This document shows, piece by piece, positions 14,341 through 63,679 of a stretch of 64,000 nucleotides of DNA. Under the pieces are notes generated by a model. It was not told the origin of the DNA. It saw only the letters and a program-made list of their open reading frames with translations, and did no database searches. The stretch's first letter is position 1. Every line of letters starts with the position of its first letter. The stretch is from a candidate division WOR-3 bacterium (GTDB lineage Bacteria; Hydrothermota; Tepidihabitantia; Tepidihabitantales; JAOUPE01): NCBI GenBank assembly GCA_039801565.1, contig JBDRUX010000001.1, forward strand, positions 51,403-115,402, read 5' to 3'. The translations under genes were made by a program, and so were the position numbers.

Positions 14341-14556
14341 AAAAATCAAGCCGAAATTTCTTTTAACTAGTAGCCTCGTAGGTTGGTTCAGGGGTTAGCT
14401 GAGGACCAAGTTCGCAAGCGAGTTGGGAGGCAACTTGGGAAACGGGTTAGGGATTTGGTTAGGAAATTAGCTGGGGAGCTGGTTCGGAGGCGGCCCCGTG
14501 AGCTACCTCAGGGATTGGCTAGTAGGCAAGCTGGAAAGTAAAATCGTAGGCTGACT
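14341..14556 (+). repeat. Copy C of the dispersed 12-nt periodic repeat family
   Basis: Leader AAAAATCAAGCCGAAATTTCTTTTAAC (shared with copy A), then a degenerate 12-nt periodic array (agttgggaggca/acttgggaaacg/ggttagggattt/...) containing cgtagg words. Confidence 0.55.
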
Positions 14557-21616: not shown

Positions 21617-21919
21617 TCAAGTGCTAATAGTCGGTGGAACCGGTTTCGGTGGCTGAGGAATACCATCCGGTGGCACCGGCTTCGGTGGTTGCGGAATACC
21701 ATCAGCAAAAATCAGAGGAGGTACGGGTTTAGGAGGTTGGGGAATACCATCGGTGTAAAGCCCCGGTGGAACCGGTTTCGGTGGCTGAGGAATACCATCC
21801 GGTGGCACCGGCTTCGGTGGTTGCGGAATACCATCAGCAATCACTGCGAAGACAGTGATCAGGAGCACAATCCATAAAAGCGCGGTAGTATGTCGCACAG
21901 AGCCTCCTTTCTTGGGCAT
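21617..21919 (-). CDS. small membrane-anchored protein with five tandem DGIPQPPKPVPP repeats
   Basis: N-terminal TM (ALLWIVLLITVFAVIA). A 36-nt tandem coding repeat, present 5 times. Confidence 0.55.
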   Translation of the reverse strand: MPKKGGSVRHTTALLWIVLLITVFAVIADGIPQPPKPVPPDGIPQPPKPVPPGLYTDGIPQPPKPVPPLIFADGIPQPPKPVPPDGIPQPPKPVPPTIST

Positions 21920-36752: not shown

Positions 36753-37050
36753 GTTAGTTAAAACTAACACCAAAATCGAGCCGAATTTCTTTTAACCTTT
36801 TGATATTTAAATATCTTATATTTAAGATTGCTTTGGGAGGGGGTATGGCCTCGGGGCAACCCCGTAGGCTACCCCCTAAGTCTTCCTATAGGTTGCTTGG
36901 GGAGTTACTTCGGCAGCTGATTGGCAGGTAGGTTCGGGAGCGACTTCGCAGGCAACTCCCGAAGCGGGTTAGAGAACAATCTGGCAAGCACCCTCGGGAG
37001 TTGGTTTGGGGGCTACCCCCGTAGGCTACATAGGAGTCTGCTCGTAGGCC
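36753..37050 (+). repeat. Copy A (full length) of the dispersed repeat family: palindrome, leader, promoter-like AT stretch, G-rich head, then 12-nt periodic array
   Basis: GTTAGTTAAAACTAAC (36753-36768). CAAAATCGAGCCGAATTTCTTTTAAC. TTGATA-N17-TAAGAT. TTTGGGAGGGGGTATGGC. About 200 nt with 12-nt periodicity, co-linear with copy B (ccccgtaggctaccccctaag, ggttcgggagcgacttcg). Confidence 0.6.
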
Positions 37051-37363
37051 AGCAATAGAATCTTTTAGAATTCATCAATCCTGGTTTTTAATGGCTCCTG
37101 ACGGATGACTAATATTATCAGAGAAAAATGAAGTTTTAACATTTAGGTAGCGGGTATTATCGGGGAAGATATTAGAGAATGCGAAGCGACTCTTCAGGTG
37201 CAGAGTTTAAATTTTATGCGTTAGCAGATAGTATTTAGGAGTGGATTTGGTCCGCCTTTGAGAGAAAAGAAAAAAGCGAAACATCCGCTGACAATTTTCA
37301 TTTATGAGAGAGATTCCTAAAATTTACCCTTGACGAGTTGTTTTTTCTAATTAATATTATAAA

Positions 37364-43986: not shown

Positions 43987-44190
43987 CCAAATTTTCTTCT
44001 TTCAGATTTTTCGATTCGAGTTGAACCCCTCTCCACTAATTACCCAATAGCAATGGGCTTTTTCCCAAAAGAAGTTTGGGTCGTTTTGTTTCTGAAATTT
44101 TGCTAATTCTTTTATTTAAGAAATAGGGTTCATTCGTTAATAATCATTTAACCTATTGATTTTTCATATCTAATGTTCTCTTGACATATC

Positions 44191-44430
44191 ATAGGGGGCT
44201 AGCCCTGGGCTACCTTATGGCTATCTCGTAGGTAGTATAGGGAGCGGTATTCGGGGTAGGTCTCGGGCTTGTCTCATGGGTAGTCTAGATATTTGGCACA
44301 GGGAAAGTGTCGAAGGCGAGTTTGGCGGTTGATTCGGAAGGTGGTTGAGAAGTGGGTTTGTCTCTAGGCAGGTATATTGGCGGGAGGACCGGCTTGGAAG
44401 GTAGCGGATAGGTTGACTCGTAATCGGAAA
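44191..44430 (+). repeat. Copy D (diverged) of the dispersed 12-nt periodic repeat family
   Basis: Head ATAGGGGGCTAGCCCTGGGCTACC, then tcgtaggtagtatagggagcgg and a G-rich array with 12-nt periodicity. Lies between the convergent CapA-like gene and dnaA. Confidence 0.45.
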
Positions 44431-44922
44431 GGGAATCTCTAAAAGGTAAACTGATAGGGTTGGAACGAAGCAGGTCGAAAAAAGAAGCTGGCTAGGGAGC
44501 CGCTTGTTACAAAAAGACCGATTAGTTCGAAAAGTACAGATGTCCTGAAAAGTAAGATACCAACAGAACTTTATTAGTTTATTACTTCTGTCGAAGAGAA
44601 TATAATTGGATAATCCTTTGGTAAGAAAGAAAAAATTTTTCCAAAGCACTGATATGGTTCTTTTACGGTTGGTTCAATGGCGAGTTGAGTATTTGTAAAA
44701 GTTAATCATAATCTTGTAGCAAAAATTCTATTATTTTAAATACTAATAAATAATAGGTTGTTGTTATTGTAATGTGAATTGTGAATATAATTTAATTATT
44801 ATAACATCGAATTGTTTAACTGATTGATTTTTAGTGACATACATCTCGACATATTTATTATTAGTACCGGTGGGGTGGTTTAAGGTAGTGGAAATCTTGT
44901 GAATGAACCCAAAAGGAAAGAT

Positions 44923-46383
44923 TTAAACCAGATATCCATAATTTATCCACTGAGTTATCTTTTTGATTTTATCATCAAAATCTGGTCTACGGCGCCTTTC
45001 TTGTTCGATTTTTTGACAGGCGTGAAGAACTGTAGTATGGTCACGGCCGCCAAAGTAGTCGCCGATGTCTTTAAGAGTGTAATTGAGAATTTGGCGCATC
45101 AAATACATTGCGACCTGCCTTGCTTCGACCTCAACTTTAGTTTTTTGGCGCGTCCTGATTTTACTCGGACTTATATTATATTCATTAGCGGTAGCTTGGA
45201 CTATTTGGTCGGCGGTAATTTTAACGGTTGGGGGTATAATTGCTTTCAACACTGCCTCTACTTGTCCCTTAGTAATTGGTTCGGACCGAATGGAACTCAT
45301 TGCTATCAGTCGGATTAATACACCTTCTAATAGCCTAATATTGGTAGTTACTCGCGAGGCAATTAGATAAGCTATGTCTTGACTTATCGGAAAACCTTCC
45401 TCTTCAGCTTTTCTTTTAATTATTGCTATTCTCGTTTCTAACTCCGGCGGTTGAATATCCACAACTAACCCGGCTTGTAATCTTGAGGCTAACCTTTCTT
45501 CGATAGTTGGAATCTCGTAGGGTGGACGGTCTGAAGTGAATGCCACTTGCTTACCAGCTTGATGTAAATAATTAAACAAATGGAAAATTTCTTCTTGTAA
45601 CCGTTCCTTACCTTTTAGATAATGAATATCATCAATTAACAATATATCACAGGACCGGTACCGTTGTTTAAAAGACAGGGTATTACCTCGGCCAATTGCT
45701 TGGATTAATTCGATGAAAAGATTTTCTGCGGGGGTATAGAGTATTTTCAAAAGAGGGTTAATTTTTTTAGCATGGTTACCTATTGCCTGAAGCAAATGGG
45801 TCTTACCTAACCCTACGCCTCCATATATAAACAGGGGATTATAACTTCGTGCCGGAGATTCAGCCACTGCTTTTGCCGAGGCATACGCTAAGCGGTTGCT
45901 TTCACCCACGATAAAATTACTAAATGTATATCGTTCATTAATATTATCCAACCCCTGAACCTTATACTTAAACGCTTCAATCTCATCTTTAAACTCTTGG
46001 GTCACTTCATTAGCTGCCACAAAACAAACCTTTATTGGTTGGTCCGAAACTTTTTTAACAGCAAGCTCAATCATTTTTAGATAGTACTGGCTGATCCAAT
46101 CAATAAAAAAATGGTTTGGGGTTTGCACGGTTAAGATATTATTTTTCATAGAGATGCCTTTAGTGGGTAGTAGCCAAGTTGTAAAACCTTCCTTGTTGGT
46201 CAATTCAGAACTTAATACGTTAAGGACCTTATCCCAGAAAAGACGGGCTATATCGTATTCGGACACTGTCCCGGACCCATCATTAACAGAATTAGCTTTA
46301 AGCTCCGTACTTGAAAACCCAAATTCGTAACTGGAATTTGGAGTATTTTCCATTTTTCCTGGCTGATTCAAAATAGTATCCAT
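44923..46383 (-). CDS. dnaA: chromosomal replication initiator protein DnaA
   Basis: AAA+ Walker A GGVGLGKTHLL, LLIDDIH, and the C-terminal DNA-binding signature DIGDYFGGRDHTTVLHA. Confidence 0.9.
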   Translation of the reverse strand: MDTILNQPGKMENTPNSSYEFGFSSTELKANSVNDGSGTVSEYDIARLFWDKVLNVLSSELTNKEGFTTWLLPTKGISMKNNILTVQTPNHFFIDWISQYYLKMIELAVKKVSDQPIKVCFVAANEVTQEFKDEIEAFKYKVQGLDNINERYTFSNFIVGESNRLAYASAKAVAESPARSYNPLFIYGGVGLGKTHLLQAIGNHAKKINPLLKILYTPAENLFIELIQAIGRGNTLSFKQRYRSCDILLIDDIHYLKGKERLQEEIFHLFNYLHQAGKQVAFTSDRPPYEIPTIEERLASRLQAGLVVDIQPPELETRIAIIKRKAEEEGFPISQDIAYLIASRVTTNIRLLEGVLIRLIAMSSIRSEPITKGQVEAVLKAIIPPTVKITADQIVQATANEYNISPSKIRTRQKTKVEVEARQVAMYLMRQILNYTLKDIGDYFGGRDHTTVLHACQKIEQERRRRPDFDDKIKKITQWINYGYLV

Positions 46384-46455
46384 TTTCTTATCCTTACCAC
46401 GGGTTGATATTACAAAAATTAATTTTAGAAAAAATCATTGCTCGGCGCACGGACG

Positions 46456-46540
46456 ATATCCACACAGATATCCACAAAGTTCGAATATTTAAGTTTCTGA
46501 TAATTCGAGACTTAATCATCAGAACCAGAAATTTCCACAA
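46456..46540. promoter_or_regulatory. cluster of three DnaA-box-like 9-mers (ATATCCACA x2, TTTCCACAA) immediately upstream of dnaA; oriC / dnaA promoter candidate
   Basis: Boxes at 46456-46464, 46468-46476 and 46532-46540 match the TTATCCACA consensus at 8/9 or 7/9 positions. An AT-rich stretch follows at about 46560-46640. Confidence 0.45.
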
Positions 46541-47972
46541 ATCGTTTTTCATTGTCTTTCTTTGTATGATATAATATTTAAAAAAAGCTATTAGTCAAGT
46601 TACAATATTGAAACTAATTTTTCAATGTTACGCCGGTGGGGTTAAAAATGTCATACCTCTTTGCAATGTTAAACAATCCCTAAAGAGGTATTCAAATTTT
46701 CTCTTTCTTCTACGGCGCGCGGGGATGGTGTTTTAAGGATAACAATCCTAAATTCGGTTAGTGCCTGACCTATTTGCGCTGGCTCAGCCTCGGATACTTT
46801 TGATAATTAAATCAGTATAAAGGGTCTCGAACGTGCCGTATTTTCTACCGTTTTTAGAGCAAGCGTATTTTCCCAGTGGTTAAGAAATTCTGGCGACAAG
46901 ATGTTTTTCGGAGTTGGTCATTAAAGAAGAAGTAAATTTAATTTTTTCATCAATAGCTGGTATCTAATAATGATTTTAAGGAAAAACATCTTTCCGAACT
47001 AATTTGCCGAATTTTCCAGTTTCAAGTCTTTTTGGGATATCGTTTCTGTTTGATACTTTAGGGTATGAGGATGGTGGGTAGTGTTTTATGAGAGATGGTG
47101 ACGGCCTATTTTTAAAAATTAAGCTAAATGGCAATAATTGATTATTGGGTTCGTTCCTTAATTACTTAAATTTCTTTTCTAATTTCGATGGTGGTTTTAT
47201 TGCAAAGTGGTTTGTGCGTTTTTAATATCGGTCAATATTGCGCTTCTATTCCTTAGTCGATATGCTGTTTTGCTGGCTTTTGCATTTACCTTTTAAACAA
47301 CTTCGTTAACTACCACGAGACAAACCTTAGCGCTCGGTCAGAAATTTTTAATAGCATTCTTAAAATAGTGGCAAACCAAGGAACGAAAATTAGAAATTGC
47401 CGGTGGGGCGATACTTTAATCCAGCCGGTTTCTTAATCCAGTTTTTAAGAATAAAATTAAGTGGAAAGCCACTCAAGAGGACATTGCTGAGATAGATTGG
47501 CCCTTGTGAGAAATCGAATGATAACTGATTTGTGGTTACAGAAGGTATTATTGGAACTTAAGTTATTAATTTAGTTAGGGTCATCAATAATACTCCCTGT
47601 TTTACATAAGCTTAAAAAATTTAATTATTAAACCATAAGACACAGAATCGAAACGGCAGTTTACTTTTCGGCTATTGGTTTTTATGCCCCAGGTGAGCCA
47701 AAAGCCAACAAAAATTTTTGACAACAAAGTGAACAAATGTTTCACGTGAAACATTTAATGAATTAAAGTTAAGATTCTTCTGTCTTGTAGTCTTGATATG
47801 GGCTTATCTCCAATTTAGTTGGGGATTTTTAGAATAAAGTATTCCGTATCTGAAGTCAATAAACTCGCTGTTTGATATACTTATAATTGTTTATCTCTTC
47901 TAATCCACTGGGGTTAATTCAGATACTCGCTATCAGCCTGGGCACAATGATACTTAATATTTACGGATCCTA

Positions 47973-48440
47973 TTAATCCCTCGATTGAAATCCGCTACCA
48001 CTATTTAATATCTTCTCGCTCCGACCTGCGTCCATCCAAACCACCTGTTCCGTCTTGTAATCTAATACCGCGGTCAAATACTTATGTCTATGCCAAATCG
48101 CAATCTCATCAATAGCCAAAATCCTTAAACCCCTATAGTCCACTTCGCCAAATTCCTCTTGCAATGCCTACTTGTATCAATCTCTTTCACTGTTTTCCAA
48201 CTAATCCTAAATGCTCTGCAACCTCTTTAGCGCTCATATGCTTACATAAAGCGGGAATGCACCCGGAGATAAACTTTGGAAGTAGCAAGATTCAAATTCC
48301 TAATTGCTCGGTTGGTATGAGAATGAATTTCCATCTACCTTGGGCGGATTTCGGACAAAGGGTACAAAGTGGAGTAAAGCGGCGATCCGAAGTAAAATTG
48401 ATGATTGCCTTTAAACAATTTTTTCTACTGACTGCCCAAT
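47973..48440 (-). pseudogene. frameshifted remnant of an ISL3-family transposase
   Basis: The minus-strand translation gives SAKEVAEHLGL..WKTVKEID followed, in another frame, by YRGLRILAIDEIAIWHRHKYLTAVLDYKTEQVVWMDAGRSEKIL. These match the ISL3 motifs (W-x-TV ... IDE-x-A ... H-x-Y-x-T-v-v-D ... GR). Stops occur in all frames around it. Confidence 0.45.
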
Positions 48441-49607
48441 AATTTTACGGAGGTAATAAGGGAAGTATGTTTTGATATTTGCAACAGGTAATTTGGTTGC
48501 CTCACTTTAATTATAGACGCATATTTGTAATCTCAGATAATTACATCACCTTTAATTTCCAACTTTTTGGATAATAACCAAATTTATAAGCTCTTCTTAA
48601 TTAAGTATGAAAACAATGTGTTAGACGAGATGGGTTTTAAAATTTGGGATATTTTCGCCGTAAGTGTTTTTAATTTAATTACTTATATATTCTTCAAACT
48701 TAACTGCTTGTTCTAACTTCCTTGCGTGCTCCGTGAGACGAACTCGCGGATTTTCTCGACAGTAATCAATTGGATATAAATAAGTGGCAGCGCGGGAGAC
48801 GCTTGTAATTGTAGTAATCACTCCAACGTCCCATAGCCGCTAAAGCCTTGTAGCAACTCCCTAAATCTTCTACAGTTAAACCTTCGTCACAATGAGTCCG
48901 ATGCAATCTTTCCGATCGACTATTAGACTCAGGATGCGCTACACGAGTCTTAACATCAATTGAGCCTTGAGCCCGTTAAGTTAACGTTCCGCCCGCAGCG
49001 TCAAGGTGAAATTCCGATGCTCAGGAACCCGACTATAAAATTATTCCATAATATCTACCAAGCAATACCAACGCGGTAAAATAAAAAAGATACATCAACT
49101 TTATATCCAAAACTTAATCCAAGTGGTTTGACTAAAGCAGTCTTACTAAACTTTGCTTTGCGGTCTCTCTTCGGCATAAGAGGTTATACTCATTTAAAAT
49201 CCGATAATGTCGAAGATAAACTACATCGTTTTCATCTACCGGCTACTATACCGTCTACTAAGGTCGGTCGTTTATTATGACTTGTGGTGTTGGAAAGTAT
49301 TGGTCGGCTTATTGTTTGTCTCAAAAGCAACAATAAATCCACTCTTATCCGTCGCACAAATTTGAGCATTGCAAGTCCGTTTTATCATCCTATTACCCAT
49401 CAATATAAACCGATAATCCTAATCAACTAACAAAACCTGGATCTTCGCCAGCAGTAACTGTTCCTATTCATTCTTGACCAATTTTCTTTCGCCGCTCTTG
49501 AATCTTGCCTACATCCGCAATCCTCTGTTCTGACTTTACCAGCGAAACATCAATCTGAATCTTTATCCTATTTTAGGAAAGACCTCTGCGGAGATAAGAC
49601 CAAGAAA

Positions 49608-49892
49608 CTAATTTACAGATTTCTTATATTCGGCAAGCCAAAGCTTTGCCTTACCTTTAAGGACTTTTAAGATTTTATCGAGGTCTTTTTGCTCAATTAA
49701 GATTACGCCGGGTAAAATTCTTTGATGCGGGATTTGGGCTAAAATTCCAGCTCTTGAATACCGGTACTTACCAAACTGAGAGAAGTCGGTATAACCATAG
49801 AGCTTACGGCGGATTTTTATGGCTTGGGTTGGGGTTAAGTTGCTTTTCATTTTAAAGGCGACAAGCAATAAATTAGCATTTACTTTTTTCAT
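49608..49892 (-). CDS. hypothetical protein
   Basis: 94-aa ORF with no recognisable motifs. Sits at the edge of the gene-poor region. Confidence 0.3.
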   Translation of the reverse strand: MKKVNANLLLVAFKMKSNLTPTQAIKIRRKLYGYTDFSQFGKYRYSRAGILAQIPHQRILPGVILIEQKDLDKILKVLKGKAKLWLAEYKKSVN

Positions 49893-50105
49893 ATAAGAAG
49901 TATAGTTAACGTTTTTGGTTTGTCAAGGCGGAATTTGAAATCTTGCTTCAAAATTTGTCCTAAATTAGATGAGCCGGGTTAATGGTTACTACATTTTTGC
50001 ACAGTCTCGATTAAGACGAGAACTGTCGAACCTTAGAATAGGTGGGAATGATAAAGAGCAAAAATTCAAAACCACATTTTTTTTCAGAGTTCTCATATAT
50101 AAGCA

Positions 50106-50133
50106 TTGACAACGATTTTGCTAAGCGTATAAT
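50106..50133 (+). promoter_or_regulatory. sigma-70 consensus promoter TTGACA-N16-TATAAT, 10 nt upstream of the cupin ATG (near-leaderless)
   Basis: ttgacaacgattttgctaagcgtataat. The ATG is at 50143. Confidence 0.5.
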
Positions 50134-50142
50134 ACCATTACG

Positions 50143-50466: not shown

Positions 50467-50711
50467 TAAAATGAATGCACAATTAACGACCGCAAGCAAT
50501 AAATTTTCCTTGACAAAGTCCTAAACCGAGTTATGATTTTATGTAATTCTAATGGTTGCGAAGCAATGGACTTGGGGTTTGGCAGCGATTTTACCGAAGG
50601 CGATAAAATTTTAGGAATTGCTCTTTTCCTTTATTTTTGTGAACAGACTGATTCGCCACAAACCTAATGGCGAATCGGTTAAAACTTGAAAACAAAAAGA
50701 AGGAGGAACAA

Positions 50712-53700
50712 ATGGATTTCAGCAGTAATAAACAAAAGAGGTTAGGCAAGAAGACCTGCTTTTCGATTTTTACCTATATGCTAATCCTATTAGCACTCGT
50801 AAGCACCGGACTCCAAGCTGGTTCAATTACCGAAAAGTTCAATTTTGCAAAAAGTGAAATAGGATTCAAGAAGATTGGCGAATTCGATTTGCCGGTAATA
50901 CGGGATTGGCTTTATACCGCGGAGGTTGGTAAGCCAATGATTCCTTATCTAATTTTTCAGGTTTTAGTTCCACCAACGGCAGAAGTTACTGAGGTAAAGG
51001 TCTTGTCATTTAAGAAAGTTGAAGTTGAAGGCAAATATTATATTCATCCCAGTCAACCACCAGTGCCAATTTCTTACAAAGGCGAGATTCCTTTTGTGCC
51101 ACCTGATGAAGCAACTTATAATTCAACTGAAGAGTATCCAGCCCGGTTGGTTGATTTTGTGCCGACTGGTTCAAAAAGTGGCTACCGGATTGCTGGGGTT
51201 GAGGTTTATCCTTTACATTATGTGCCTAAGGAACGGAGGCTTTTCTTATACACCGAACTGGTCTTAGAAATTATTTATGAAGAAGGTAAGGTTGCACCGC
51301 AACTTTTAACCGAATCCCAGAAGAGACTTTTTGGTCAAGAAGTGCGAAGTTTAATAATCAACAAAAAGGATTTAAAACGTTTTGAACCACCGACGAAACT
51401 GATTGACCAAGGTAACGAGATTGATTACTTGATTATAACCAGTAGCACCTTGGAATCGAATTTCCAGCCCTTAGCCGAATGGAAGACTAAAAAAGGCTGG
51501 AACACCAAAATTCGAAATACTAACTGGATAAATACTAATTATTCCGGCCGGGACTTACAAGAAAAAATCCGAAATTACATTCGAACCTGTTTCGCCGATT
51601 CAGGTTTGAAGTTTGTGCTTCTGGCAGGTGATAATTCGATAATCCCAAAACGAGGAACATATGCCTGGGTTTCACCTCATATTGACAGTTTCATACCTTG
51701 CGATTTGTATTTTGCTGATTTAGATTGGAGTTGGGATGGTAACCAAAACAATGTTTTTGGCGATACTTGGACAATAGGCGGTAGGCGAGACACGGTTGAC
51801 CTTTATTATGATGTTTACATCGGAAGGGCATCAGTAGAAACAGCGAGCGAAATTTCCAATTTCTTGAATAAATTATTTACCTATGAGAAGAATCCAAATA
51901 CTGATTACATCAAAAGAATCCTTTTACCTTGGGGGGTACTATGGTCAGGTTATGATAGCAAACAATCGCAAGATTCGATAGCGAAATATACACCGGCTGG
52001 TTGGACTGACCGCTATATCAATGATACAAGAGTGGTTAATGAAGTTAGGGATTCGTTAAATAATGGTTTTCAATTCTGCCATTTGGTTGGGCATGGCAAT
52101 GATGTTGGGGTTTATTGGACAAGCACCGGACCAGCAATGTATCATACCGGCCATCCCGGAACACAGACCAATGTTAATAAGTATCTTATTGCTAATTCGA
52201 TTGCTTGCTATCCAGGTAATTTTGAATACTCGGATTGTCTTGCTGAATCTATGGTGAATGTCCAGAATTGTGCGGTGGCGGTGATTATGAATTCAAGATA
52301 TGGTTGGGGAACGCCGCCTAACATTGGTCCTTCAGAACTTCTTGATTTTCAATTTTATTATTTCTTTTTTAATTATGATACCTTCCGAATCGGTATCACC
52401 CATGCCGAATCGAAAGAATTTTATCGGAACTCAGCTCTTAACCAACAGGTTTGGCGTTGGTGTTATTACGAGTTAAATCTCTTTGGTTGTCCGGAGATGC
52501 CGATGTGGCAGGATGTTCCTTTGACAATGACTCTTGCCTTTGACGATACAATAAACACTGGTAGCCAAACTTTTACTGTAACCGTCACTGACCCGAGTGA
52601 TGCGCCGGTTGTGAATGCTTTAGTTTGTCTTTGGAAAGGAAATGAAGTTTATGTGCGGGGGTATACTAATGCCAGCGGTATCGTTAACTTTACAATAAAT
52701 CCTACCACTGTTGGTCAAATGTTTGTTACCGTCTCGGCTTTTAATCATTACCCGAAAGAGGATACTTGTTACATTATTGAGCAGAACGAGGATGTCGGCG
52801 TTACGACTATTATTACACCAACCGGCAATATTGACTCGAGTGCGGTCTCCTCAATTATACCTCAAGCAACAATTCATAACTATAGCATTTCCGATACGCT
52901 AAGTTTCCCAGTAATTTTCTATATCTATGACAGTGGCTGGAATTTAGTATGGGCGGATACTCAGCAGATATTAGACCTTGGTCCTAACCGCGATACGACA
53001 ATAAATTTTGCTGCTTTAGGCATTGAATTGTCACGTGGCATTTATAACACTAAATGCACAACCGCCCTGGTTGGTGATATTAACCCATCCAATGACTGGC
53101 AGGATAGTTCATTTACGGTTATTGTCCACGATGCTGGGATGATTGATATTGTGACGCCAACCGGACTTATTAAGAAAAATAGTGTTATCACACCTCAAGT
53201 AACAGTGCGGAATTTTGGCAGTGTTAGAGATTCTTTTGATGTGATATTAACGATTGGAGCGACTTATGTTGATACCGTCTTCACAACCCTTGACCCTAAC
53301 AACCAAACAACACTTAGTTTTAATCCTTGGACCGCAACTGCAATTGGGACATTTCAAGTTCGCTGCACCACCGCTTTAATTGGCGATTTAGTCACAGTCA
53401 ATGATACTTTATCGGATTCGGTAATAGTCTACGATGATGATGTCGGTGTGGTGGCAATTTTGGAGCCAGTTGGTCCGACCGATTCGACTGCGACGATTGT
53501 GCCCCGCTGTAGTGTTTACAATTATGGTTCATCACCAGCTACTTTTTCGGTTACTTTTAGAATCTTAGAAGCGGGTTATAGCAATACGCAAACCGTTACC
53601 GCATTAGCCCCCAATACCGGCACAGCGATTCCTTTTGCGCCCTGGTTGGTCGGGCCAAGGGGCAATTATACGACAAGATGTTCAACCGGAATGAGTCCCG

Positions 53701-56700
53701 ACACCAATGCATTGAACGACACTTTATCCGGTTCGTTTACGATTCGGGTGCATGATGTTGGTGTTACGGAAATTCTTGCCCCAATTGGTGTCGTTGCCTT
53801 AAATAGTTCAATTACACCCCAAGCAGTAGTTAGAAATTTTGGTACCGAGACCGATACCTTTGATGTTTCGCTTGTTGTTCTAACATCGCCGTCGAGTTCT
53901 TGGACGGAAACTGGAATAATTTTAGATTCTGGTGCGGTTGATACGGTCAGTTTTGCCCCGAACTGGACCGCAAGTCCTTTAGGAACATTTGAAGTCCGTT
54001 GTTCGACATCTTTAACTAATGATTTAGTCGTTGCTAATAATCTGAAGATTGATACGGTCATTGTTACGGATTTTGATGTTGGCGTAGTAGCGATTCTTGC
54101 TCCGGTAGACACATTAGATTCGACTGCTACCCTTGTTCCACAATGTAGTGTTTATAATTATGGTTCATCAGCGGTAACTTTCCCGGTGACTTTCCGAATC
54201 TTAGAAGCGGGTTATACCGCTACCGAGACAGTAATTGGCCTGCCACCAAATACTGGGACAACGGTTTCCTTTGCGCCTTGGACAGTAGGACCGCGCGGTT
54301 CTTATACAACCCGATGTTCAACCGAACTTATGCCAGATTTTAATCCAGTAAACGACACTTTATCTGGTTCATTTGTGATTCGAGTGCACGATGTTGGGGT
54401 GACTGAGATACTAGCACCAGTGGATACCGTGATTCTTAATCACGCTTATAATCCGAAAGCGGTTGTCACTAACTTTGGGTCGGTGCGTGAGACTTTTAAT
54501 GTCTCATTGGTTATTCTTCCGACAATACCACCACCAAATTCGTTTACGCAATCCGTCACATTACCGGCAGGTGAAACCGATACGGTAGACTTTAATTTAG
54601 CACTCTGGGTGGCAACACCACTTGGAACTCATCAGGTCCGCTGTTCTACGGATTTGGCTAACGATTTAGTCCCCAATAACAATCTAATAATTGATTCGGT
54701 GACGGTTTCCGATGCGGATGTTGGAGTGACGGCAATCGTCTTTCCTACCGGCAATGTTGATTCGACAGCAACAATAACACCACTGGTTAGTTTTTATAAC
54801 TATGGTACTAATCCAGCGTCATTCCCAGCAATTCTTACTTTCACCGGGCCAGCTAATTATGTTGATACTCAAATTGTCAATTTGGCCGGTAATAGTGGCT
54901 TGACGATACCGTTTGACCCTTGGACTGTTGGACCGCGTGGCACTTATCAGGTGAAATGCACTACTGCCCTTGCCTTTGACACCGCAGCAGTAAATGATAC
55001 GATGTCAGGTTTCTTTTCCATTATTGTTCATGATGTCGCGACAATTGAAATTATTGCGCCGAAGGGAGTGATGCCGTTGAATCGAAGTGTCACTGCCCAA
55101 GCGGTAGTACGAAATAATGGAACCCAAGCTGAGAGTGTTGATGTTTCGATGATTGTTTTGACACCAGTGCCGACTACTTGGACGGTGACGATAGATAATT
55201 TAGGGGCTGGTGTGACCGATACGGTTGATTTTGGGTTATGGACGGCAACACCACTTGGCACCCATCAGGTTCGTTGTTCGACCGATTTGGCTAATGATTT
55301 AGTTCCAAGTAATAATCTAATAATTGATTCGGTGACGGTTTCCGATGCGGATGTTGGAGTGACCGAAATCTTGTATCCAACTGGAACAATTGATTCAACG
55401 GTATCATTGATTCCAGAAGCGGTTGTCTTCAATTATGGTTCGCAAGCTATATCCTTCCCAGTTATTATGAGAATTTTACCACCAGCAACTTATGTTAATA
55501 TTCAGTGGGTGAATAATCTTCCACCCAACACCGCTGATACAGTTCAATTTGCGCCTTGGACAATCGGACCGCGGGGAACTTATACTGTTCGATGTTCTAC
55601 CGCTTTAAATATTGATACCAGTGCGGTAAACGACACAGTCTCACGACAATTTGAAATCATTGTTCACGATGTTGGAACTACTGAAATTCTTGCCCCCAAG
55701 GGTATTGTTCCTTTAGGTAGTCCGGTTACACCTCGTGCAGTGGTGAGAAATTTTGGGACTGAGACCGATACCTTTGATGTCTCGCTTACCGTTCTGACCG
55801 TGCCACCAAGTTCTTGGACCCAAACCGGGATAGTCTTGAACCCAGGTGAAGTTGATACCGTCAGTTTCGCACCAAACTGGACAGCAGGTCCGGTTGGAAT
55901 TTTCCAGGTTCGCTGCTCAACTTCGATGGTGCAGGATTCGGTATTGGCTAATAATCTTCAAATTGACACGGTTCAGGTGGTCGCATTTGATGTTGGTGTA
56001 AATGCCATTGTTGCACCAGTTGGAACCATTGATTCTTCTACTACTCCAACGGTTGTGCCTCAGGCAAGCATAACGAATTATGCAACTATACCGGTTAGTT
56101 TCCCCGCAATTTTCCGTATCACCCGTGGTGCTTATATTTGGGCTGATACCCAGACTATTAATCTAAATGCTGGACAAACTACTACGGTTAGTTTTGACCC
56201 TTGGACAGTTGGGCAAACCGGTATTTACACAACACGCTGCACAACTGGTTTGATTGGTGATGTCGACCCAACTAATAATCACACTGACAGTACTTTCCGA
56301 GTTGTAACCCCGGGTGGTGATGTGGGAGTGACCGCATTGATTCTTAACCCATCTGGACCGAATGTTGATTCCGGCACAACCATTCAAATTTCTGCCCGTG
56401 TTAAAAACTTCGGTACCGAGGTCTCCACTTTCCAGGTGAAGACAAAGATTGGTACTTTTTATCTCGACAGCCTACCGACACCACTTACCTTAAATCCTGG
56501 CGATTCCGCAACGGTAAGTTTTAGCAATTGGGTTGCAGTCCGGCGTGGCCAACACATTGTGCGATGTAGCACCGAATTAGATGGCGACATTGACCATTCT
56601 AATGACCGTCAGACAAGAAATATTACAGTCTTGGTTCGCGATGTGCGAACCTATTCAATTTTGGCACCAACCGGCAATATTGATTCAACCGCTAATCCAA

Positions 56701-59168
56701 TCACACCACAGGCAATAGTTGAAAATTCAGGCAATGTTTTAGTAGATAGCTTCCCGGTAATATTCACTATAACTGGACCAGCCACCTGGACGAATACTCA
56801 GATGGTTAGGAATTTGCCGGCTGGACAACAGCGGACAGTAGACTTTGCACCTTGGACAATTGGTCCGGTTGGTGCTTATACAACGGCTTGTAGCACCGCT
56901 TATGCCCTTGATATGAACCCGTCTAATGACCGGCGTACCTCACAATTCTGGATTCAAAGGGTTGATATCAGCGTTGACTCCATTGTCTCACCATTAGGTG
57001 TGGTAGATTCCAATTCGGTTGTGCCAGTCCAAGCCTGGGTATCAAACCAAGGCACCTCAAACAAAACCTTCTTGGCTATTTTCCGAATCGGCACCTTTTA
57101 TACTGATACTGTAATCATAACCCTTAATTCACTTGCCGATTCGTTAGTCACCTTTGACACTTGGCGTATCTCACAACCAAAAGGGATTTATCCAGTCCAA
57201 TGCACGACAGTGATTGCCAATGATGCCAATCCCAATAATAACCAAGATACAGGTTCGGTGCAAGTGCGCGTCAAAGATGTCGCAATAGATTCAATCATTT
57301 CGCCAAGCCCAGTTATTCCACCCGGCATAATGAATCCAATTGCCCGAGTCATCAATAATGGCAGTGATTCACTTGATTTTTATGTCTATTTCCGAATTCG
57401 TAGTGCCAGTGGTACGGTTTATTTCGATTCCGCTTATGTTCCACTCTTGGCACCGGATTCGAGTTACGACGCCACTTTTCCGGCTTGGGATGCAGTGCCT
57501 GGTATTTATATTGCTCGTTGTTCCTTAGCAATAGCTGGTGATATGGTTCGAAGCAATGACACCTTATCAATTACTTTTAATGTTGCGACTCGGGATGTGG
57601 GTGTCTCAAGAATTGTCTTTCCAGGAAGACGGACTTTATTAGGACCAATTCAACCGCGCGTTGTTGTGAAAAACTATTCCAGTACTATCGAATCATTCTG
57701 GACTTGGTTCAGCATCACTGATACAGCGAGTGGTAGTAATGTCTATTTTGATTCGGCATTTTGTGCCGACTTAGGTCCTTGGATGGAACAAATTCTTGAC
57801 TTCCCAATCTGGACCGCTAACCTTGGCGGTTATCGGCTTGTTTCGTATACGGCTTTAGTTGGTGATGATAGCACAGCTAATGATACAGTTACTGCCTACT
57901 GTCAGGTTGATTCAATTATTTTGCCAAAATGGGCACAAAAAATGGATATGCCACTTGGACCAAGAGGCAGACCAGTGAAACGGGGTGGTTGTATTACCTT
58001 TGGTGGTAATAACCTCTTATTCGCCCTCAAAGGTGCCGGTACCAACGAATTCTACTCCTACAATATTACCTCGGACACTTGGGTAACCTTGGAAACGATA
58101 CCCTATGCCTTAAATAAGAAAAAGAAAGTAAAGGGTGGCTCTGCAATTTGTTATGATGGCAATAACACAATATTTGCCCTCAAGGGCAATAACACTCTTG
58201 AATTCTGGGCTTATTCAATTCCTTACTCTACCTGGATCCAATTAACTGATGTCCCAGCTGGGAGCAAACGAGCTAAAGGCGGCTCGGGTCTTGCTTTCGT
58301 CCCAGGTCCAACTGGTGGTTTAATCTATTGTCTGAAAGGTAGTAAGACCTTTGAGTTTTATGCCTATTCCATTGCCACTAATACTTGGATTTTCCTGCGC
58401 AATGCGCCAGCCGGCTATCGGGGCAAACCATTTGACAAAGGTAGTTGTCTCACCTATGACCCAAGTACCAATCAAATCTTTGCCTTAAAAGGCTATGAAA
58501 ACGAATTCTTCGCCTATGATATCATTGCTGATTCTTGGACAATTAAAGCATCGCTACCAATATATGGCTTTGCTGGACAAAAACGAGCCAAAGAAGGTGC
58601 AGCACTGGTTGCCGATGGTTCTGGTCTTATCTATGCCTTCAAAGGCAATAATTCACAAGAATTCTGGGTCTATCACATTGCCGGTGACTGGTGGGAACAG
58701 GTTGACCCGATTCCGATTGGACCAAACAATCGCAAAGTCAACCAAGGTGGCGCTCTCGCCTATGTTCCGAGCATTGGCAAAATTTATGCTCTAAAAGGAA
58801 ATCGAACTCGAGAACTTTGGGCTTATGACCCCAATGCATTATCACTTTTGAACTCGTTGAACGATTTGAACTCTTCATCGGGCACTATGGAAACAGAAAC
58901 CCGTCCGCTTGAGTTAATTAACTTCAAAGTAACCCCGAACCCGAACAAAGGAAATTTCATATTAAAATACAATGTAGATAAGATTCGTCCGATTACAGTT
59001 AAACTTTACAATGCCTTGGGTGAACGAGTCTTTGAACAAACTAAGCAAGTTACGAATAAATCAGGAACGATTACGATTGACACTGAAAAACTGGCGATCG
59101 GCATCTACATTATGCGGATAGAGTTCGATGGCGTAAGGTATAGCGAAAAGGTTCTAATTCAGAGGTAA
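50712..59168 (+). CDS. Giant T9SS-secreted gingipain-family (peptidase C25) protein with ~15 CARDB-like repeats, a Kelch-like beta-propeller and a T9SS C-terminal sorting domain
   Basis: AAGGAGG sits 6 nt upstream of the ATG at 50712, so the track's 50667 start is likely over-extended. Signal peptide. C25 catalytic contexts (LLAGDNSIIP, HLVGHGND, NSIACYPGNF). Repeats of about 100 aa (DVGVTEILAP...TPQAVVRNFG...VRCST). About 8 blades of the (K)GG-x-[LA]-x~10-IYALKG-x4-EFWAY-x5-W type. CTD VTPNPNKGNF...KLYNALGERV...GIYIMRI...KVLIQR. Confidence 0.8.
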   Translation: MDFSSNKQKRLGKKTCFSIFTYMLILLALVSTGLQAGSITEKFNFAKSEIGFKKIGEFDLPVIRDWLYTAEVGKPMIPYLIFQVLVPPTAEVTEVKVLSFKKVEVEGKYYIHPSQPPVPISYKGEIPFVPPDEATYNSTEEYPARLVDFVPTGSKSGYRIAGVEVYPLHYVPKERRLFLYTELVLEIIYEEGKVAPQLLTESQKRLFGQEVRSLIINKKDLKRFEPPTKLIDQGNEIDYLIITSSTLESNFQPLAEWKTKKGWNTKIRNTNWINTNYSGRDLQEKIRNYIRTCFADSGLKFVLLAGDNSIIPKRGTYAWVSPHIDSFIPCDLYFADLDWSWDGNQNNVFGDTWTIGGRRDTVDLYYDVYIGRASVETASEISNFLNKLFTYEKNPNTDYIKRILLPWGVLWSGYDSKQSQDSIAKYTPAGWTDRYINDTRVVNEVRDSLNNGFQFCHLVGHGNDVGVYWTSTGPAMYHTGHPGTQTNVNKYLIANSIACYPGNFEYSDCLAESMVNVQNCAVAVIMNSRYGWGTPPNIGPSELLDFQFYYFFFNYDTFRIGITHAESKEFYRNSALNQQVWRWCYYELNLFGCPEMPMWQDVPLTMTLAFDDTINTGSQTFTVTVTDPSDAPVVNALVCLWKGNEVYVRGYTNASGIVNFTINPTTVGQMFVTVSAFNHYPKEDTCYIIEQNEDVGVTTIITPTGNIDSSAVSSIIPQATIHNYSISDTLSFPVIFYIYDSGWNLVWADTQQILDLGPNRDTTINFAALGIELSRGIYNTKCTTALVGDINPSNDWQDSSFTVIVHDAGMIDIVTPTGLIKKNSVITPQVTVRNFGSVRDSFDVILTIGATYVDTVFTTLDPNNQTTLSFNPWTATAIGTFQVRCTTALIGDLVTVNDTLSDSVIVYDDDVGVVAILEPVGPTDSTATIVPRCSVYNYGSSPATFSVTFRILEAGYSNTQTVTALAPNTGTAIPFAPWLVGPRGNYTTRCSTGMSPDTNALNDTLSGSFTIRVHDVGVTEILAPIGVVALNSSITPQAVVRNFGTETDTFDVSLVVLTSPSSSWTETGIILDSGAVDTVSFAPNWTASPLGTFEVRCSTSLTNDLVVANNLKIDTVIVTDFDVGVVAILAPVDTLDSTATLVPQCSVYNYGSSAVTFPVTFRILEAGYTATETVIGLPPNTGTTVSFAPWTVGPRGSYTTRCSTELMPDFNPVNDTLSGSFVIRVHDVGVTEILAPVDTVILNHAYNPKAVVTNFGSVRETFNVSLVILPTIPPPNSFTQSVTLPAGETDTVDFNLALWVATPLGTHQVRCSTDLANDLVPNNNLIIDSVTVSDADVGVTAIVFPTGNVDSTATITPLVSFYNYGTNPASFPAILTFTGPANYVDTQIVNLAGNSGLTIPFDPWTVGPRGTYQVKCTTALAFDTAAVNDTMSGFFSIIVHDVATIEIIAPKGVMPLNRSVTAQAVVRNNGTQAESVDVSMIVLTPVPTTWTVTIDNLGAGVTDTVDFGLWTATPLGTHQVRCSTDLANDLVPSNNLIIDSVTVSDADVGVTEILYPTGTIDSTVSLIPEAVVFNYGSQAISFPVIMRILPPATYVNIQWVNNLPPNTADTVQFAPWTIGPRGTYTVRCSTALNIDTSAVNDTVSRQFEIIVHDVGTTEILAPKGIVPLGSPVTPRAVVRNFGTETDTFDVSLTVLTVPPSSWTQTGIVLNPGEVDTVSFAPNWTAGPVGIFQVRCSTSMVQDSVLANNLQIDTVQVVAFDVGVNAIVAPVGTIDSSTTPTVVPQASITNYATIPVSFPAIFRITRGAYIWADTQTINLNAGQTTTVSFDPWTVGQTGIYTTRCTTGLIGDVDPTNNHTDSTFRVVTPGGDVGVTALILNPSGPNVDSGTTIQISARVKNFGTEVSTFQVKTKIGTFYLDSLPTPLTLNPGDSATVSFSNWVAVRRGQHIVRCSTELDGDIDHSNDRQTRNITVLVRDVRTYSILAPTGNIDSTANPITPQAIVENSGNVLVDSFPVIFTITGPATWTNTQMVRNLPAGQQRTVDFAPWTIGPVGAYTTACSTAYALDMNPSNDRRTSQFWIQRVDISVDSIVSPLGVVDSNSVVPVQAWVSNQGTSNKTFLAIFRIGTFYTDTVIITLNSLADSLVTFDTWRISQPKGIYPVQCTTVIANDANPNNNQDTGSVQVRVKDVAIDSIISPSPVIPPGIMNPIARVINNGSDSLDFYVYFRIRSASGTVYFDSAYVPLLAPDSSYDATFPAWDAVPGIYIARCSLAIAGDMVRSNDTLSITFNVATRDVGVSRIVFPGRRTLLGPIQPRVVVKNYSSTIESFWTWFSITDTASGSNVYFDSAFCADLGPWMEQILDFPIWTANLGGYRLVSYTALVGDDSTANDTVTAYCQVDSIILPKWAQKMDMPLGPRGRPVKRGGCITFGGNNLLFALKGAGTNEFYSYNITSDTWVTLETIPYALNKKKKVKGGSAICYDGNNTIFALKGNNTLEFWAYSIPYSTWIQLTDVPAGSKRAKGGSGLAFVPGPTGGLIYCLKGSKTFEFYAYSIATNTWIFLRNAPAGYRGKPFDKGSCLTYDPSTNQIFALKGYENEFFAYDIIADSWTIKASLPIYGFAGQKRAKEGAALVADGSGLIYAFKGNNSQEFWVYHIAGDWWEQVDPIPIGPNNRKVNQGGALAYVPSIGKIYALKGNRTRELWAYDPNALSLLNSLNDLNSSSGTMETETRPLELINFKVTPNPNKGNFILKYNVDKIRPITVKLYNALGERVFEQTKQVTNKSGTITIDTEKLAIGIYIMRIEFDGVRYSEKVLIQR

Positions 59169-63333: not shown

Positions 63334-63635
63334 TAGGGAGGGGGTACCGTATAGGGGGTGACCCCGTAGGCTACCCCCTAAGCTATCCCGTAGGTTGCTT
63401 GGGGAGTTGCCTCGGGAGTTCCTTCTGGAGCTGGTTGGTAGGCAGGTTCGGGAGCGACTTCGTAAGCAACTTCCGAAGCAGGTTAGGAGGCTACTTGGGG
63501 AGCAACCAGGGGAGCTACCCCGTAGGCTGCCCAGTAGGCTACCTCGTAAGCAAGCCGGTAGGCTGGCATCTTTCCCAATTTCGAAATTCGAAATTCTTTA
63601 AGAAAACCCCGTAGGCTACCTCGTGGGCTGGGGTT
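63334..63635 (+). repeat. Copy B (full length) of the dispersed repeat family: G-rich head plus ~15 units of a 12-nt periodic array
   Basis: Head TTAGGGAGGGGGTACCG. The ccccgtaggctaccccctaag word is shared with copy A. Units ggttgcttgggg / agttgcctcggg / agttccttctgg / agctggttggta / ggcaggttcggg ... with consensus rGCnrsyTnGGr. The ORF-track ORFs at 63395 and 63399 are translations of this array. Confidence 0.6.
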
Positions 63636-63679
63636 AGAAAAACAAATCCAACTAACAATTTCTAAATAACAGCTTTCGA

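Follow-up and report, generated by a model that had tools for sequence, protein, structure and literature searches.

Where does replication begin with respect to dnaA in a candidate division WOR-3 bacterium, and what fills the long gene-free interval beside this gene? Both questions are raised by a 64-kb stretch of DNA from this organism (here called the window), in which dnaA is on the minus strand, so that the interval under study, positions 46384 to 49607, is the region upstream of the gene (Table 1). The first-pass annotation presented this interval as a candidate oriC, with DnaA boxes next to dnaA and a 3.2-kb desert of decayed mobile-element sequence behind them. We judge it moderately likely that the interval is the core of the origin (ori) domain with transposon wreckage at its far end and that the unwinding site most likely lies on the other side, downstream of dnaA. 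The region is an ordinary origin-proximal one, built of known kinds of components and holding no new kind of element.

Comparators were collected from genome and metagenome scans, in which the nearest named DnaA proteins, from candidate division WOR-3/Stahlbacteria, were ~50% identical to that of the window, and by a protein search, which identified a closer clade (DnaA identity, 56% to 60%), three members of which were compared (loci L062 to L066). Locus L001 and two Logan contigs (L002 and L059; SRR27730018) represent essentially the same strain as the window. The sole usable within-species comparator was L057 (GCA_039801525.1), which is 97.7% identical to the window over 16.7 kb. Eight loci of distant relatives were used to compare the region upstream of dnaA, and 25 loci were used to count the module downstream of it. 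Between the window and L057, dnaA differs by five substitutions, every one at a third codon position; the gene is under purifying selection between strains.

parS and DnaA boxes upstream of dnaA

Of the observations made in the window, the strongest evidence for an origin-proximal locus is a putative parS site in the desert, first seen as a self-match and overlooked by the first-pass annotation. The site is identical at 16 of 16 positions to the chromosomal parS consensus TGTTNCACGTGAAACA (PMC7022226), and no other site in the window matches this consensus, even with up to three mismatches; by our calculation from base composition, ~2e-5 exact matches would be expected in 64 kb. In the species tabulated in PMC7022226, nearly all chromosomal parS sites are in the ori domain. 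In the window, the site is 1.35 kb upstream of dnaA, and an exact parS was found upstream of dnaA in 17 related loci. Identical 20- to 22-bp copies are located 0.3 to 0.9 kb upstream of the gene in L062 to L066, and exact copies are located 4 to 9 kb upstream in 13 more distant loci; across the whole sub-clade, parS is within 0.3 to 1.4 kb of dnaA. Similarly to the chromosomal parS/ParB centromeres of Bacillus subtilis, Hyphomonas, Thermus, and others, the site is an exact 16-bp palindrome that is intergenic, near dnaA, present once or a few times in each origin region, and conserved in this origin-proximal location. It differs from these systems in that parAB genes do not adjoin it in the window, and no ParB domain was detected among the window proteins. 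Loading of ParB at this site would organize and segregate the origin region.

Several distant relatives, including L007 (5330 to 5380) and L010 (5360 to 5415), have adjacent pairs of parS sites, one with all 16 positions and the other with a 14-bp core. These pairs occupy a conserved intergenic region, flanked by a ubiA-like gene and the gene for a 430-aa membrane protein, ~4.3 kb upstream of dnaA.

The three DnaA boxes reported upstream of dnaA were all recovered, the third one starting at 46531 instead of 46532. Each fits TTWTNCACA with at most one mismatch in our own comparison. The evidence for these boxes is their position and conservation and not their number, because DnaA-box-like 9-mers occur at chance level across the window (20 found versus 18 expected). 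L062 and L063 share the three-box spacing of the window exactly (63 and 12 nt), and L066 has only two boxes, 63 nt apart; the tandem pair with 12-nt spacing is also present in the eight distant relatives. In those eight, a hypF-like gene is followed by dnaA after only 110 to 170 bp, and the short spacer contains a TTGACA...TATAGT promoter and then the tandem sequence TGTGGATAA-n3-TGTGGATAA right before the start codon. The dnaA promoter of the window aligns with this promoter, and all three boxes are downstream of it, inside a leader of ~180 nt. When the gaps upstream of dnaA in the window, L062, L063, and L066 are compared, they have in common no words of 10 nt or more besides parS, the DnaA boxes, and AT-rich low-complexity sequence.

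The boxes are thus 9-mers close to TTATCCACA whose position and orientation are conserved beyond chance, and they are probably functional sites, because their arrangement has been kept to the nucleotide in the closer clade. Their placement fits DnaA autoregulation: DnaA bound at the three sites would repress dnaA transcription, and the sites could in addition serve as one arm of an origin flanking dnaA. As in the autoregulation of dnaA in Escherichia coli and B. subtilis, near-consensus boxes are located between promoter and start codon at a conserved position; here, however, they are in the transcribed leader, which would suggest repression of the roadblock type. On the combined evidence of parS and the DnaA boxes, the locus belongs to the ori domain.

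Could the upstream boxes themselves, with the neighboring AT-rich DNA (46440 to 46630), be oriC, the rest of the 3.2 kb being a decayed insert? The AT-rich stretch noted in the first-pass annotation does exist (46531 to 46630; 79% AT, rank 7 in the window), and the three TTWTNCACA-like boxes within 84 bp reach the minimum of three required of an origin cluster (quoted in PMC7561715). The 400-bp segment that contains them also has the highest box score of the 64 kb, with the AT-rich patch alongside. However, the score is 6 versus 5 elsewhere, and the patch coincides with the -35 and -10 hexamers and the leader of dnaA, homologous to the 110- to 170-bp promoter/operator region (roughly 140 bp) of the relatives. 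In addition, a richer AT tract and a lineage-wide module are found downstream of the gene, and sister lineages have counterparts of the proximal half of the desert, which contains parS. The boxes and the patch are present as described, but they are the dnaA promoter and leader and do not define oriC by themselves, and we consider this placement of oriC improbable.

The module downstream of dnaA

Compared as possible origin clusters, the upstream side has three boxes and a 79% AT patch that doubles as a promoter, and the downstream side has four weak boxes together with the most AT-rich 100-bp segment of the window. The scan for further boxes and an unwinding element that the first-pass annotation had recommended identified a better candidate for the latter on the opposite side of dnaA. 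Within this AT-richest segment, the window reads ATATTCACA-ATTCACA-TT-ACAATAACAACAAC (44757 to 44788). The homologous block in the relatives is AATCCACC-nn-ATCCACA-TTG-(ACA)4-5, after which come AT-rich DNA and the ribosome-binding site of dnaN, and in their dnaA-dnaN spacers weak boxes of the TCAACA type precede AATCCACC. An array of at least three ACA units was found 135 to 175 nt after the dnaA stop codon in all 25 loci compared (L003 to L010, L025 to L038, and L062 to L066) and is usually the only one of its kind in 10 to 21 kb. Searches of the window with nhmmer profiles of the relatives' spacers placed the best matches where they were expected, but the E values were 1.6 (for the array), which is not significant on its own, and 0.086. 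In most loci the module also has an inverted (TGT)n arm.

In most relatives, dnaN starts 190 to 230 bp after dnaA, and five related loci have no dnaN there. The first-pass annotation was correct in stating that dnaN is not adjacent to dnaA; neither dnaN nor the genes flanking dnaA in distant relatives were found anywhere in the window. The separation of dnaA and dnaN is an old trait common to the sub-clade and not a local accident. A short stretch after dnaA that resembles part of DnaN was considered as a dnaN pseudogene in situ. Its strand and location are as expected for such a relic, but it is statistically insecure (tblastn E value of 3e-4 with a 936-nt database, rising to 0.13 with 6 kb; hidden Markov model score equaled by 5 of 400 shuffles and third to fourth in a scan of the whole window) and was kept only as a possible relic.

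The downstream module aligns across clades and is also kept in the five loci without dnaN, where the overlapping -35 hexamer has degenerated. Since it has been retained without dnaN and despite this degenerate hexamer, the module is not merely a dnaN promoter. With moderate confidence, we regard it as the most likely unwinding region: DNA would open at 44703 to 44802, where the most AT-rich DNA of the window joins two box-like sites and the (ACA)n array in an arrangement kept lineage-wide.

The closest parallels are the bipartite origins that flank dnaA in Firmicutes and Helicobacter, such as incAB/incC with the basal unwinding system (BUS) of B. subtilis, which consists of two boxes, DnaA-trios, and an AT-rich tract, and oriC1/oriC2 of Clostridioides difficile. 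As in these, boxes are clustered in the promoter region of dnaA and, downstream, two tandem boxes in the TTATCCACA orientation are followed after 2 to 3 nt by a trinucleotide array and AT-rich DNA, the module standing just before dnaN in most relatives. Unlike these, the WOR-3 locus has far fewer boxes, and dnaN is gone in the sub-clade. The trinucleotides differ as well. According to PMC8287927, a BUS has one or two DnaA boxes (with at most two and at most four mismatches) within 16 bp of at least three trios of the form 3'-NAN-5', consensus 3'-GAT-5', on the strand that runs 3' to 5' away from the boxes; the published DnaA-trios read 3'-GAT-5', and it is the bottom strand that carries them (PMC8287927, PMC10201434, and PMC7561715). 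The boxes of the window, ATATTCACA and CAATTCACA, conform, the array beginning 2 nt after them. The array, however, has ACA on the top strand, and the strand on which trios are expected reads (TGT)n, which does not have the defining central adenine. Runs of NAN are found only 16 nt or more past the second box, in AT-rich DNA, and in our reading are such as chance would produce. The (ACA)n array was accordingly rejected as a set of DnaA-trios on the grounds of strand and sequence (PMC8287927, PMC7561715, and PMC10201434). That it might instead be a lineage-specific counterpart of the trios, read with another trinucleotide or strand preference 3' of the two tandem boxes, is a speculative idea that we hold to be rather doubtful; if true, single-strand recognition by DnaA would not be universally centered on 3'-GAT-5'.

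Several observations, the missing trio adenine among them, weigh against an ori core with an unwinding site downstream of dnaA. Cumulative GC skew, a check proposed in the first-pass annotation and run here on the 64-kb window, has its minimum near 28 kb; in a regression with a step term, corrected for coding strand, the step at 46 to 48 kb is negative (t, -2.7), and no upward switch of the kind expected at an origin was found within the window. Four genes at 37.4 to 44.0 kb would be head-on to a fork leaving this site. None of the classical origin neighbors dnaN, parAB, rpmH, gyrB, and mnmG is in the window; only two boxes are within one mismatch of the consensus, with no enrichment of boxes window-wide; parS is a marker of the ori domain and not of oriC itself; and a reading of the downstream module as a sigma-70 dnaN promoter with DnaA operators is possible in most relatives. 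The skew is uninformative at the 64-kb scale, with low power, because it follows gene strand and codon usage (skew at four-fold sites tracks codon usage) and because one 8.5-kb repeat gene dominates the right flank; it still gives no support to the origin claim.

The same lack of a skew switch, the few strong boxes, the missing neighbor genes, and the overlap of both box modules with promoter-like hexamers would also be accounted for if there were no origin here, the boxes being only operators of dnaA and formerly of dnaN, oriC lying elsewhere, for example with a relocated dnaN, and parS marking a broad ori domain. Against this stand the retention of the downstream module in five dnaN-less loci although the -35 hexamer has degenerated, the closeness of parS to dnaA (0.3 to 1.4 kb) across the sub-clade, and the divergence of gene orientation at the dnaA-upstream gap in three sister loci (L062, L063, and L066). 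We therefore regard an origin elsewhere as unlikely and retain the reading of an ori-domain core with unwinding downstream of dnaA.

Two halves of the gene desert

The longest open reading frame (ORF) in the interval from 46384 to 49607 is 92 aa, and every frame has 53 to 79 stops, in agreement with the first-pass description of a 3.2-kb desert with stops in all frames and no ORF over ~95 aa. The desert consists of two halves of different nature: a proximal spacer (46384 to 47972; 1.6 kb) and distal insertion sequence (IS) debris (47973 to 49607; 1.6 kb). Its description as decayed mobile-element sequence thus holds for the distal half, with remnants of three IS families, and not for the proximal half, which has a gap as its counterpart in sister lineages and contains parS.

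The gene-free gap upstream of dnaA is 1,333 nt in L062, 1,690 nt in L063 and L065, and 421 nt in L066. By this comparison, the proximal half is probably an ancestral spacer bearing a canonical parS, the counterpart of the 0.4- to 1.7-kb noncoding gaps of the sister lineages. Beyond the leader, it comprises ~1.1 kb without detectable constraint and then the single perfect parS. Between 46621 and 47737, there was no Pfam, NCBIfam, or Rfam match and no fold signal, and the k-mers shared with sister loci were AT-rich low-complexity words only; a six-frame Pfam and NCBIfam search of 46.6 to 47.97 kb also returned nothing. Neither hypF nor other ancestral neighbors were found in the desert.

Alignment to related genomes, which the first-pass annotation had suggested for delimiting inserted DNA, showed faster change in the desert. 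Relative to L057, the desert has 41 substitutions in 2,987 nt versus 13 in 3,693 nt of the flanks (~4-fold density; Fisher p, 3e-6); the segment from 46621 to 47972 is 1.7% divergent, with indels of 1, 4, and 14 nt, none a multiple of three. The Logan assembly (L002 and L059; SRR27730018) stops exactly at the dnaA start codon and restarts at 46948, and in L001 position 46982 is an N. These breaks suggest that the proximal spacer is heterogeneous in the population or difficult to assemble.

The distal half contains recognizable transposase fragments of the ISL3, IS481, and IS1182/IS5-like families, as shown by Pfam, NCBIfam, and tblastn searches. The ISL3-like fragment (Pfam DDE_Tnp_ISL3, E value of 3e-4; NCBIfam NF033550, E value of 4e-9) is real, although it can be read in two frames and not in at least three as previously annotated. 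Strain-specific 1-nt indels relative to L057 are present in it at 48110 and 48262, and a large-database search with the stitched pseudo-protein returned one match only. The minus-strand fragment RVAHPESNSRSERLHRT that the first-pass annotation had noticed near 48800 to 48950 belongs to an IS481-like remnant (rve_3, E value of 1e-5; NCBIfam NF033577, E value of 1.6e-6). The NCBIfam scores of both are far below the full-length cutoffs because only fragments remain. In contrast to members of these three families, with which they share transposase homology, the remnants are 60- to 150-codon fragments with stops and frameshifts; the window has no intact copy, no intact ORF was found for ISL3 or IS481, and no convincing terminal inverted repeats were found around the fragments. 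Insertion and subsequent decay near dnaA, as originally proposed, are thus shown for 47973 to 49607. The neighborhood is origin-proximal, as the conserved boxes and parS indicate, but only about half of the desert is recognizable as mobile-element debris.

The distal desert edge abuts orf94, an intact small gene that is 100% conserved between strains. A 74%-identical homologue is directly upstream of an IS1182/IS5-like transposase gene in two unrelated metagenome contigs (L060, 1079 to 1360; L061, 9 to 290), and orf94 may be an IS-associated accessory gene. Beyond parS, the region consists of 1.6 kb of dead IS fragments followed by a small gene of the kind that accompanies such a transposase in other genomes.

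A gene in an unusual genetic code or a large noncoding RNA might in principle be concealed in the desert, and the first-pass annotation had named a structured RNA or alternative code usage as an outcome that would overturn its reading. Nothing positive points to either beyond the 1.1 kb without assignment. Rfam yielded nothing in the desert at gathering thresholds or at E values up to 1; over the whole window (gathering) and at 43.9 to 50.2 kb (E value of at most 1), the only match was one tRNA, far away. Sliding-window folding of both strands from 43987 to 50142 gave nothing beyond chance, the lowest z-score among 242 windows being -2.8. Six-frame Pfam searches detected two transposase fragments only, the neighboring genes use the standard code, and the desert diverges faster than its flanks, with indels outside multiples of three. 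We consider a hidden gene or RNA extremely improbable.

Table 1. Positions of features in and around the dnaA locus, numbered from the first nucleotide of the window
Feature	Position	Strand	Description
Repeat copy D	44190-44520	plus	G-rich, C-poor; weak 12-nt periodicity
Possible dnaN relic	44520-44639	minus	Matches DnaN residues ~198 to 234; weak, not established
Candidate DNA-unwinding element	44703-44802		Downstream of dnaA; AT-richest 100 bp of the window, 84% AT (sliding AT content)
Trinucleotide array	44757-44770	minus	ACAATAACAACAAC in the dnaA sense; homologue of (ACA)4-5 in relatives
Two tandem DnaA-box-like sites	44773-44788	minus	ATATTCACA (2 mismatches) and CAATTCACA (3 mismatches), immediately 5' to the array
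Second pair of box-like sites, weak	44887-44906	minus	TCATTCACA and ATTTCCACT, just past the dnaA stop codon
dnaA	44923-46383	minus	486 aa; Pfam DnaA_N, Bac_DnaA, and Bac_DnaA_C
Tandem DnaA boxes	46456-46464, 46468-46476	plus	ATATCCACA each; 1 mismatch to TTATCCACA
Tandem DnaA boxes, dnaA sense	46456-46476	minus	TGTGGATAT-n3-TGTGGATAT, in the dnaA 5' leader
Third DnaA box	46531-46539	plus, minus	ATTTCCACA (plus), TGTGGAAAT (minus); 2 mismatches; 63 nt start to start from the pair
dnaA promoter	46571-46598	minus	TTGACT-16 nt-TATTAT (consensus scan)
Spacer without detectable constraint	46621-47737		Between dnaA promoter and parS
Putative parS	47738-47753		TGTTTCACGTGAAACA; center of a perfect 22-bp palindrome (47735-47756)
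ISL3-family transposase remnant	47976-48444	minus	Model positions ~82 to 164 of 370; frameshifted, 3' end missing
IS481-family (rve) transposase C-terminus remnant	48769-48975	minus	Reads RVAHPESNSRSERLHRT...
IS1182/IS5-like transposase remnant	49299-49487	minus	DUF772 and DDE_Tnp_1; tblastn versus L061 transposase, E values of 0.001 to 0.006
orf94	49608-49892	minus	Intact small gene, no known family; strong, near-consensus promoter of its own (TTGACA-16-TATACT); desert edge

Further features of the window and the origin-region map

The first-pass annotation had placed a "repeat copy D" on the other side of dnaA. The stretch is G-rich and periodic like three clearer copies, but blastn gave no long match to them. 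The family is intergenic, G-rich on the plus strand, and built of degenerate 12-nt units, for example, CCCGTAGGCTAC; its members are at 14375 to 14550, 36828 to 37060, 63335 to 63645, and, more weakly, 44190 to 44520, with lag-12 identities of 0.51, 0.42, 0.51, and 0.37, respectively. Copies B and C share 77% identity over 155 nt, and on the plus strand they fold better than shuffled sequences (z, -3.4 and -4.5), which is not the case for copy D (z, -0.8); no Rfam match was obtained for the family. All four copies are in one orientation, on both sides of dnaA.

A gene at 50667 to 59168 encodes a 2,833-aa Peptidase_C25/T9SS-tail protein with internal repeats of ~636 nt. No other gene diverges as much between strains (7.8% relative to L057, in the 5' part, and 4.9% relative to the otherwise near-identical L001), and a C25 peptidase is also encoded upstream of dnaA in L062 to L065. 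At 21632 to 21840, a perfect 77-nt direct repeat, the copies 132 nt apart, is located within a 36/48-nt tandem array and overlaps a 100-aa minus-strand ORF without a family match.

The locus provides a reasoned origin-region map for an uncultured phylum (WOR-3/Stahlbacteria), comprising putative dnaA operator boxes, parS, and a candidate unwinding module, and shows a long-standing separation of dnaA and dnaN in one sub-clade. Beside parS, IS elements have accumulated and died without disturbing the site. The parS site and the box spacing can serve as landmarks for anchoring WOR-3 metagenome-assembled genomes at the origin. Wider interest attaches only to the conserved noncanonical trinucleotide array at the position that DnaA-trios would occupy.

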